From contig CAZAXX010000011.1 of the NCBI GenBank assembly GCA_964489265.1, positions 1 through 41,549 of the forward strand: a stretch of 41,549 nucleotides of DNA, read 5' to 3'. This stretch comes from an uncultured Coxiellaceae bacterium (GTDB taxonomy: Bacteria; Pseudomonadota; Gammaproteobacteria; DSM-16500). Shown in pieces: positions 34,668 to 37,049 of the stretch (position 1 is its first letter; every line of letters begins with the position of its first letter). Under the pieces are notes generated by a model that did not search any database, was not told the DNA's origin, and saw nothing but the letters and a program-made list of their open reading frames with translations. The position numbers and the translations under genes are program-made.

Positions 34668-35821
34668 TGAAAAATTTAATTTTTGTAGCACTCGTCGTTG
34701 CCATGTTCACAATGGGTTGCAACGCCTTTCTAATTGCCGGCCTTCTTCCACAAATAAGTCACACGCTGTCGCAATCTATTGCAATCACTGGGCAAGGAAT
34801 GACTGCATTTAGCTTTTTTTATTTTCTGTCAGCGCCTGTATTTTCTATACTTTTTTCAAAAAAACCCTTCAAGCAAGTGATACAAATTGCATTACTTGTA
34901 TTTCTGCTTGGAAATTTACTTACGCTGCTGTCTACATCAATTACCCTATTTTTGCTTGGCAGATCGCTCGCAGGAATTGCCACTGGAATTTTTACGCCCT
35001 CCTGTCTCACGATGGCCTTTCATTTTGCTGATGAAGCAAACCGGGGGAAACGTTTGAGCATGATTTGGGGCGCGAACAGCGCGGGTGCTGTTTTCGGTGT
35101 ACCCTTCGGGATTTATCTCTCATCACTTTTGAATTGGCAATTGTCTATTGCTTGTTTGATCATATTGAGCTTATTGGTCTTCGTGATTTTTTCGTTGCAA
35201 AATGTGCAAATCAAATTGCCAGTTATGCCATCATTGCGAGAACGATTTTATCTTCTTCTTGATCAAAAAATTATGTTCGTTATTACTATCACTTTTTTTG
35301 CTGCGACAGCCAGTTTAGGACTTTACTCTTACATGGCTGTTATTCAATCGGGAATTTCTCATTCACTTGTTTTGACTATTTTTTCCTGGGGATTGGGCGG
35401 TTTTATTGGAAGTTCGTTTGTGGGATTTTTTATTGATCTCACGAAAAAACCGCAAATGATTATGACATTCATCTTGGTGGGTCTGATAGTCACTTTTATC
35501 ACGATTCCTTTTGTGATGAATTTACCTTACTTCGGATTAATTCCATTTTTTATGTGGGGCGTTTTTGGCTGGGCCATGCCTACCACTCAGCAACATATTT
35601 TATTTGAATTACAAGAAAAACAGGGAAGCATATTAGCTGCGTTAAATGGTTCAGCAATTGGATTAGGCAATGCAGTTGGCACTGCAGTGGGTGGTGCAAT
35701 TATTGCAGCTGGATTTCATGGAATTGAGCTACCTTTTTGTGCCGCTATTTTATTAATTATCGTATTGATAGGTCAGTTTGTTTTTTTGAAAAAGTCAGAA
35801 GGAGTGATAATTCGTGAATAG
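34667..35821 (+). CDS. MFS transporter (12 TM), likely exporter of the cluster product
   Basis: Hydrophobic helices run throughout, and the MFS motif-A-like LLGRSLAGIATGIF is present. The start overlaps the upstream stop (TGATG). Confidence 0.75.
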   Translation: MKNLIFVALVVAMFTMGCNAFLIAGLLPQISHTLSQSIAITGQGMTAFSFFYFLSAPVFSILFSKKPFKQVIQIALLVFLLGNLLTLLSTSITLFLLGRSLAGIATGIFTPSCLTMAFHFADEANRGKRLSMIWGANSAGAVFGVPFGIYLSSLLNWQLSIACLIILSLLVFVIFSLQNVQIKLPVMPSLRERFYLLLDQKIMFVITITFFAATASLGLYSYMAVIQSGISHSLVLTIFSWGLGGFIGSSFVGFFIDLTKKPQMIMTFILVGLIVTFITIPFVMNLPYFGLIPFFMWGVFGWAMPTTQQHILFELQEKQGSILAALNGSAIGLGNAVGTAVGGAIIAAGFHGIELPFCAAILLIIVLIGQFVFLKKSEGVIIRE

Positions 35822-37049
35822 ACCCGTCGTCATTGTGAATCCCTTATCATCAGGAATAGAATTAGCGCCCGCGTTTAAATCCAGAGGAATACCTGCGATT
35901 GCAGTCACACTTAAATCACCTGATTGGGCTGGCTATGGATCCACGCTTCAAACTGCCGACTTTGTTGAGATCATTCCAGATCAAACGAATATTGCAGACA
36001 TACTTGCAAAATATAATCCGCTTGCCATTCTTCCAGGTACCGGAGAAAGCGTTCCTTTAGCAGAACACTTAACAGAAGTCTTAACACCTGAACTTGCCAA
36101 CGATCCAAAAAAATCATTGCATCGATTACATAAAGCACTCATGCAAGATGCTTTGCAAAAGGCTGGCGTTCCTTATCTCAAAACACTCAATACAGCATCT
36201 GAAAATGAAGTGGCAATGTGGATCAAAGAAAATGAATTAAGTGATTCGCCACTCATTGTGAAACCACCGATGTCAGGCGGAAGTGATAACGTCTTTCACA
36301 TTCCAGCCAATGGCGATTGGAAAACGGCTTTCAATCGTGTGTTAACTGAACCTTCACATACCTCTGGAAAAGTGAATGAAACTGTTGTGATTCAAGAACA
36401 AGCGATCGGTACGGAATTTGCTGTTGGTACTGTCTCAGCGAATGGAAAACATTATTTAGCGCATTTAATTAAATACAACAAAGCAACCTATCATGATCGC
36501 AAAACAGTTTACGATTATGTTGAGTTTGTGCCGTATTGTGAAGAAGAACTTGGCGAATTGTTTGCATATACGCAACAAACGCTTGATGCATTAGGAATTC
36601 GTTTTGGAGCAACTCATACAGAAATCATGCTTACCGCAAAAGGCCCGCGGCTCATCGAGTTGGGCGCCAGAATGTGTGGCGGCCCTGTGGTTAGATTTGC
36701 GCGTGAAGCATCCGGAAGTAGTCAAGCAGATAAATTAGTTGAAATCTATGCGGATGGTGATGTGCACACAAAAGAATATTTATTTAAAAAATTAGTTGTT
36801 CCAGTTTTTTTAAAATCACCCGCTAACGGAATCATCTCGAATATGGAAGCGCTTGCTGACACGTCTAAATTACCGACCTTGTTCAACAGTTATCTTTGGT
36901 TTAAAAATGGTGATCGTGTACCGCAAACAGTGGACTATTTAACTAGCATTGGAATTATTGCATTGACGGGAAATCGCGAGTGCATCTTGCAAGATTACAA
37001 AAAAATTCGGGAAATGGAAGCTAACTTGATTGTTCAAGCAATAGATTAA
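35814..37049 (+). CDS. ATP-grasp enzyme (carboxylate-amine ligase-like)
   Basis: PLIVKPPMSGGSDNVFHI is a B-loop-like segment, and LIELGARMCGG matches the ATP-grasp E-x-N/G-x-R-x-GG motif. The GTG start overlaps the MFS gene end by 8 nt. The protein is 411 aa. Confidence 0.65.
   Translation: MNRPVVIVNPLSSGIELAPAFKSRGIPAIAVTLKSPDWAGYGSTLQTADFVEIIPDQTNIADILAKYNPLAILPGTGESVPLAEHLTEVLTPELANDPKKSLHRLHKALMQDALQKAGVPYLKTLNTASENEVAMWIKENELSDSPLIVKPPMSGGSDNVFHIPANGDWKTAFNRVLTEPSHTSGKVNETVVIQEQAIGTEFAVGTVSANGKHYLAHLIKYNKATYHDRKTVYDYVEFVPYCEEELGELFAYTQQTLDALGIRFGATHTEIMLTAKGPRLIELGARMCGGPVVRFAREASGSSQADKLVEIYADGDVHTKEYLFKKLVVPVFLKSPANGIISNMEALADTSKLPTLFNSYLWFKNGDRVPQTVDYLTSIGIIALTGNRECILQDYKKIREMEANLIVQAID

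Follow-up and report, generated by a model that had tools for sequence, protein, structure and literature searches.

Isonitrile operons that start with homologues of PvcA/IsnA and PvcB/IsnB are described from Pseudomonas aeruginosa (pvcABCD, paerucumarin) and from Xenorhabdus and Photorhabdus (isnAB-GT, rhabduscin). PvcC and PvcD represent a two-component hydroxylase of the HpaB/HpaC type, isnAB-GT includes a glycosyltransferase, and neither of the two clusters contains an ATP-grasp ligase. Another isocyanide cluster is that of Legionella pneumophila, which was reportedly studied by Tørring, Shames, Cho, Roy and Crawford (Tørring et al. 2017, ChemBioChem 18:638), whose abstract is said to present two groups of metabolites, one being an already known isocyanide derived from tyrosine and the other N-acyl-L-histidines that were new. 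N-acyl histidines are recorded as L. pneumophila natural products (PMC6677021), and a passage in a review that cites Tørring et al. 2017 names a PF13535 ATP-grasp enzyme as forming acyl-histidine via an acyl-phosphate in this species (PMC11631085). A sentence in a further paper mentions that (E)-4-(2-isocyanovinyl)phenol from an isnA- and isnB-expressing host was labelled with tetrazine (PMC13647977) and, by the order of its references, appears to refer to the Tørring et al. study. Here, we analyzed a corresponding locus on the contig CAZAXX010000011.1 of an uncultured Coxiellaceae bacterium (assembly GCA_964489265.1), whereby the whole stretch of 41,549 nt, with a GC content of ~38%, is referred to as the window. 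On its plus strand (31377–37049), the genes for PvcA, PvcB, an FAD-dependent monooxygenase (FMO), a major facilitator superfamily (MFS) transporter, and an ATP-grasp ligase follow each other in this order, and the last one, the ligase gene, is the subject of this study.

The Window Operon Is a Further Copy of the Legionella System

According to the original prediction, which was made from the window sequence alone, the known pvc and isn clusters do not include any ATP-grasp carboxylate-amine ligase. This is wrong, as an identical PvcA–PvcB–FMO–MFS–ATP-grasp operon, again with overlapping gene junctions, is found in L. pneumophila genomes and has already been studied there. Between the window and L. 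pneumophila, the encoded proteins share 56% (PvcA), 72% (PvcB), 77% (FMO), 61% (MFS), and 75% (ligase, over its full length) identity, and orthologues of the ligase occur throughout Legionella at 71–84% identity. Besides the gene order, both clusters have in common that the ligase belongs to the PRK07206 subfamily and that PvcB carries an arginine/asparagine (R/N) signature. They differ in their surroundings: L. pneumophila has a divergent LysR gene upstream by pvcA, whereas a tblastn search of the whole 41.5-kb window yielded no LysR homologue, which is present in 27 related loci; a downstream S-adenosylmethionine (SAM) methyltransferase gene, missing in the window, occurs only in the L. pneumophila loci (L001–L003) and in L. 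pneumophila subsp. fraseri (L006); and in the window, unlike in L. pneumophila, a PPDK_N-domain protein of 1393 aa is encoded upstream of the operon. The window operon is a further copy of the known Legionella system and not an independent sign of new chemistry. The expectation that the ligase gene would be a separate reason for novel chemistry was not borne out, since this gene is a standard part of the chemically examined Legionella cluster. In a full-text literature search, no paper was found that joins an isonitrile synthase or an isocyanide gene cluster with ATP-grasp, and lpg0174–lpg0178 gave only a typographical match.

The ligase has hundreds of homologues with E < 1e-190, and a chance open reading frame is therefore ruled out. 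Its N-terminus, MNRPVVIV, agrees with the N-termini of 27 orthologues, and an AGGAG Shine–Dalgarno sequence is located at 35800–35804, 9 nt 5′ of the GTG start codon (35814). The TAG stop codon of the MFS gene lies at 35819–35821, such that the ligase gene shares its first 8 nt with the MFS gene, while the preceding junctions PvcA/PvcB, PvcB/FMO, and FMO/MFS are overlaps of 11, 4, and 1 nt, respectively. Open reading frame calls and reading of the sequence thus confirmed what had been proposed for the coordinates of the ligase gene, its GTG overlap with the exporter gene, and its terminal position in the operon. Because of this tight packing, it is strongly suggested that the five genes are co-transcribed. 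No terminator-like sites were found on the plus strand within 31377–37049, and the next gene (37046–37996, minus strand) runs towards the operon, with an overlap of 4 nt at the ligase stop codon. A promoter scan yielded 25 promoter-like sites versus 21.3 expected, a number at which neither an internal nor an operon promoter can be claimed.

The Ligase Has an ATP-Grasp Fold and Conserved Catalytic Residues

The classification as an ATP-grasp carboxylate-amine ligase related to dapdiamide (DdaF)- and BacD-type ligases held up at the level of protein families, predicted fold, and catalytic residues. The protein passes the cutoffs of Pfam PF13535 (ATP-grasp_4; 46.4 bits, cutoff 27) and NCBIfam PRK07206 (NF005543; 498.5 bits over residues 1–408, cutoff 302), and in the latter model the L. 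pneumophila orthologue scores 584 bits and the PDB entry 30vh 357 bits. An AlphaFold model (pLDDT 77, pTM 0.77, some low-confidence loops) recovered the ATP-grasp fold and gave 450 PDB matches at E ≤ 0.001 in a Foldseek search, and all among the matches listed are ATP-grasp enzymes. L-amino acid ligases are on top, namely 3vot (BL00235, E 8e-23), YwfE/BacD, and RizA, and PurK, PurD, and biotin carboxylases rank below them, so that the protein neither lacks the ATP-grasp fold nor is unrelated to ligases. The closest PDB sequence is 30vh (E 4.6e-40; 7e-94 with the family profile), whose deposited name is “L-amino acid ligase”. Entries 30vh and 30vq are a recent deposition, and by NCBIfam 30vh falls into the PRK07206 subfamily and not into DdaF; its organism and substrates were not found in recent papers on L-amino acid ligases.

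Residues K150, E195, H268, E270, E282, R286, and G289 are invariant in the homologue alignment down to 33% identity. E270, E282, and R286 align with E311, E324, and R328 of BacD (native numbering), which we take to be the Mg-binding glutamates (E311/E324) and the catalytic arginine (R328), and they also align with the BL00235 motif. Judged by these alignments, the ligase looks catalytically competent. In terms of structure, the best matches are BacD/YwfE, BL00235, and RizA (Foldseek E 8e-23 to 2.5e-18, TM about 0.7), enzymes that link one free amino acid to another. They have the H-x-E ... E-x-x-A-R motif in common with the window ligase, but their identity to it amounts to only about 16%, and the specificity residue Trp332 of BacD corresponds to Gly290. 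DdaF and 30vh show full-length homology and the same ligase architecture and catalytic residues; for DdaF, however, the presumed substrates differ and the dapdiamide genes are not found near the window ligase. Two orthology assignments were considered and rejected: the DdaF equivalog model NF041595 gives 147.9 bits (residues 5–406) at a cutoff of 840, and the BacD equivalog model NF053745 gives 14.8 bits at a cutoff of 850.

PvcB Is Predicted to Yield a Vinyl Isonitrile

The passages of Kim et al. that deal with this signature (PMC9467999) assign Lys/Arg at the position of PIsnB K107 and Asn/His at that of N188 to the decarboxylating, vinyl-isonitrile-forming PIsnB type, and Leu and Cys at the same positions to isocyanoacrylate-forming PvcB, and they include the authors' warning that a single mutation is not enough to turn one outcome into the other. 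The window PvcB matches PvcB (3eat, E 5e-89) and PIsnB (7tcl, E 7.5e-79) in the PDB, and the alignment to both places R102 and N182 at the signature positions. It thereby satisfies the decarboxylating IsnB signature (Lys/Arg plus Asn/His) of the isnAB/rhabduscin type and differs from P. aeruginosa PvcB, which has Leu and Cys. The R/N pair is found in 46 of the 49 PvcBs that adjoin an orthologue of the ligase. The window PvcB is thus predicted to be of the PIsnB type, to decarboxylate, and to give a vinyl isonitrile, and in view of the authors' warning this outcome stays a prediction. It agrees with the reported Legionella product, which is a vinyl isonitrile as well.

The predicted isonitrile would lack both a carboxylate and an amine, and a hydroxyl group is all that the monooxygenase would contribute. 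Therefore, the amide-linked, dipeptide-like isonitrile that had been proposed as the product is unsupported: the R/N signature of PvcB and the compound (E)-4-(2-isocyanovinyl)phenol leave no handle for amide ligation. The more general idea of an amide product fares better, as an amide is likely to be formed, but rather than an isonitrile conjugate it would probably be an N-acyl-histidine made separately.

The Ligase Gene Is Co-inherited With the Isonitrile Genes Across Phyla

A homologue scan with one genome per species resulted in 80 loci, and the five window proteins were compared with 83 loci in total. Architectures were counted for the 58 loci with a ligase that shares 42% identity or more with that of the window; ligase homologues with an identity of 40% or less, mostly from actinomycetes, have no Pvc genes nearby. 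PvcA, PvcB, FMO, and ligase genes occur together in 42 of the 58 loci, arranged as PvcA–PvcB–FMO–ligase (21 loci), with the MFS gene before the ligase gene as in the window (PvcA–PvcB–FMO–MFS–ligase, 15 loci), or with the MFS gene behind it (PvcA–PvcB–FMO–ligase–MFS, 6 loci). The position of the MFS gene thus varies in the cluster family from before to after the ligase, or the gene is absent. Five loci show a variant PvcB–HpaB–AsnB–Zn alcohol dehydrogenase (ADH)–LigB–short-chain dehydrogenase/reductase (SDR)–MFS–ligase arrangement, several are cut by contig ends or rearranged, four have the ligase gene alone among unrelated neighbours (L013, L016, L022, and L044), and one, L033 from Bdellovibrio bacteriovorus, has an intact ligase gene beside a truncated monooxygenase gene.

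The clusters are hosted by Legionella, Candidatus Obscuribacterales, Bdellovibrionota/Oligoflexia, three cultured Chryseobacterium species, Myxococcota, and a Kutzneria metagenome-assembled genome, i.e., by at least five phyla, and many of these hosts are intracellular or predatory. GC contents of the loci range from 0.33 to 0.71, and that of the cluster (0.34–0.71) tracks that of the host. Binning contamination as the source of the orthologues outside Legionella was considered and rejected based on this GC tracking and because the gene is also carried by cultured Chryseobacterium and by a completely sequenced Bdellovibrio. Since the order of the four-gene core is kept across phyla and the cluster GC follows the host GC, the spread points to old or repeated horizontal transfer. 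The identity of the ligase to the window ligase co-varies with that of FMO (Spearman 0.81) and PvcB (0.76). By these comparisons, the ligase is evidently a long-standing, co-inherited member of the cluster family, and this co-inheritance argues more strongly than any other observation that the ligase is functionally linked to the isonitrile. The solo copies, for their part, argue that the ligase can also be useful alone.

No Pvc genes were detected within 8 kb of the solo ligase genes. L013 is from Legionella quinlivanii and L033 from B. bacteriovorus kdesi, and the ligases of L013, L016, L022, L044, and L033 are 64–73% identical to that of the window. At L022, a 41-aa remnant of an MFS gene lies directly upstream of the solo ligase gene, and it appears that the ligase outlives cluster decay.

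The variant cluster is located at L049:107-9236 and is also present at L048, L051, L052, and L053, with a ligase about 50% identical to that of the window. It encodes PvcB, an HpaB-type hydroxylase, an asparagine-synthase-type amidotransferase, a Zn alcohol dehydrogenase, a LigB extradiol dioxygenase, an SDR, an MFS transporter, and the ligase. This gene content suggests that a catechol isonitrile undergoes ring cleavage, which to our knowledge is not part of any described isonitrile pathway.

Proposed Function of the Ligase and Alternative Explanations

On balance, we favour the explanation that the ligase, as an orthologue of the L. pneumophila enzyme, makes N-acyl-L-histidines via an acyl-phosphate beside a separate, probably hydroxylated vinyl isonitrile, and we regard this as somewhat probable. 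The ligase would use ATP to phosphorylate a carboxylate, and attack of an amine on the resulting acyl-phosphate would lead to an amide. By orthology, and following the secondary literature on the L. pneumophila enzyme, the carboxylate would be that of a medium-chain fatty acid and the amine the α-amino group of L-histidine, so that N-acyl-L-histidines would result. PvcA and the PIsnB-type PvcB would meanwhile convert L-tyrosine to (E)-4-(2-isocyanovinyl)phenol, which the FAD monooxygenase would probably hydroxylate to the catechol. Export of the products may be the task of the MFS pump. The four loci with a solo ligase gene and the one with a ligase gene beside a truncated FMO gene fit a function that is independent of the isonitrile genes.

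Several points weigh against this assignment. An identity of 75% between the ligases does not guarantee the same substrates, and the assignment of acyl-histidine to the L. pneumophila enzyme is taken from single passages in secondary sources. The closest solved or named relatives (30vh, BL00235, BacD, RizA, and DdaF) ligate amino acids to amino acids and are not fatty-acid ligases. Moreover, the tight co-inheritance of the ligase with PvcA–PvcB–FMO (42 of the 58 loci; ρ of 0.81 and 0.76) is not explained by two unrelated products.

It could also be that the enzyme is a conventional L-amino acid ligase, which forms a free di- or oligopeptide from two unprotected amino acids and is chemically independent of the isonitrile. 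The best PDB sequence match, 30vh, is named accordingly and is itself a PRK07206 member (357 bits), and BL00235, YwfE/BacD, and RizA are the best fold matches. However, the literature on the 75% identical orthologue, as far as the review passage goes, names acyl-histidine and not a dipeptide (PMC11631085). In addition, identity to characterised dipeptide ligases is only 16–33%, and the equivalog scores are far under their cutoffs (DdaF, 148 versus 840; BacD, 15 versus 850), which makes a dipeptide product rather unlikely.

We consider it improbable that the ligase acts within the isonitrile pathway and joins L-tyrosine isonitrile, or a ring-hydroxylated form of it, to an amino acid, perhaps histidine, in which case the fatty acyl-histidines would be side products of a promiscuous ligase. 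Such a role would be in line with the retention of the four-gene core in 42 of the 58 loci, with the GC tracking of the hosts, and with the co-variation of identity with FMO and PvcB; the variant architecture (PvcB–HpaB–AsnB–ADH–LigB–SDR–MFS–ligase) also retains the ligase, and the substrates that are joined in DdaF, the nearest named family, are an acylated amino acid and an amino acid. Yet the PvcB signature predicts decarboxylation, a step that requires and removes the carboxylate, the isocyanide reported from Legionella genes is, in the sentence mentioned above, the decarboxylated vinyl isonitrile (PMC13647977), and some ligase genes stand alone, with no Pvc gene closer than 8 kb. Moreover, the screen for isonitriles by Tørring et al. 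reportedly turned up a known isocyanide only. A more specific form of this explanation is likewise improbable, namely that an isonitrile intermediate with a carboxylate (L-tyrosine isonitrile or its hydroxylated form) serves as the physiological acyl donor, that an isonitrile-acyl-histidine or a similar amide is the product, and that the N-fatty-acyl-histidines of L. pneumophila are by-products. If this were true, the co-inheritance of PvcA, PvcB, FMO, and the ligase would reflect one still undiscovered end product. Finally, it is very improbable that the ligase modifies the catechol or phenol isonitrile by a non-amide bond (e.g., an ATP-dependent ester to the ring hydroxyl) or acts as a kinase, for although the microviridin pathway includes ester-forming ATP-grasp enzymes, and this would be the sole way in which a decarboxylated vinyl isonitrile could be a substrate and would explain the co-inheritance, it is without sequence or literature support, and the closest relatives all make amides with α-amino nucleophiles.

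Returning to the N-acyl-histidine explanation, no biosynthetic step is common to the vinyl isonitrile and the N-acyl-histidine, the two product classes reported, and the ligase has nonetheless accompanied PvcA, PvcB, and a flavin monooxygenase through at least five phyla. The two products may act together, e.g., in metal binding, or the true end product may have been missed, and either case could clarify the role of the cluster for Legionella in hosts and biofilms.

Further Genes of the Operon and Its Neighbourhood

The features of the ligase gene and the other operon genes are compiled in Table 1. The PvcA open reading frame is listed there from a TTG codon at 31377, but ATG at 31383, 7 nt past a GGAGA sequence, is the likelier start.

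Table 1. Positions of the operon genes and of sequence features of the ligase gene in the window.
Feature	Position	Strand	Evidence
PvcA/IsnA-type isonitrile synthase	31377..32405	+	PF05141 266.9 bits; NF045653 TyIsonSynPvcA 308 bits, under equivalog cutoff 600
PvcB/IsnB-type Fe/2OG oxygenase, R102/N182 signature	32395..33231	+	PF02668 170.5 bits
Single-component FAD-dependent aromatic monooxygenase (FMO)	33228..34667	+	PF01494 214 bits; NCBIfam PRK07190 932.5 bits, cutoff 530
MFS transporter, putative exporter	34667..35821	+	PF07690 105.6 bits; Cmx/CmrA-like 121 bits, below cutoff
Ribosome-binding site and GTG start of ligase gene, within 3′ end of MFS gene	35797..35816	+	Direct sequence reading; orthologue N-termini
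ATP-grasp carboxylate-amine ligase, PRK07206 subfamily, 411 aa, GTG start, last of five operon genes	35814..37049	+	Pfam, NCBIfam, predicted fold, 75% identity to L. pneumophila cluster ligase
K150, ATP-binding Lys ahead of Gly-rich loop	36261–36263	+	Homologue alignment
Catalytic core H268-x-E270 ... E282-L-G-A-R286	36615..36671	+	Alignments to BL00235 and BacD

The FMO presumably acts as a hydroxylase that converts the phenol to the catechol. It is a single-component PF01494 enzyme, whereas the P. aeruginosa hydroxylase is of the HpaB type, and no HpaB domain is encoded in the window operon; in the variant clusters, an HpaB-type hydroxylase replaces the FMO. In the loci examined, the part of the accompanying oxidase is taken by an FAD monooxygenase (PF01494), and none of them showed a P450 (cf. 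PMC5126622). Unlike in isnAB-GT, no glycosyltransferase Pfam domain was detected in the five operon genes or the flanking genes tested.

The 1393-aa protein upstream of the operon (27063–31244, minus strand) occupies the place of the divergent LysR gene that is conserved in the 27 related loci, and its sole Pfam match is the N-terminal AMP/ATP-binding domain of pyruvate phosphate dikinase (PPDK_N). On the other side, the operon is followed by three open reading frames at 37046–37996 (minus strand), 38163–39107 (plus strand), and 39114–40157 (minus strand), which encode proteins of 314–347 aa without a Pfam match and may represent lineage-specific, effector-like proteins.

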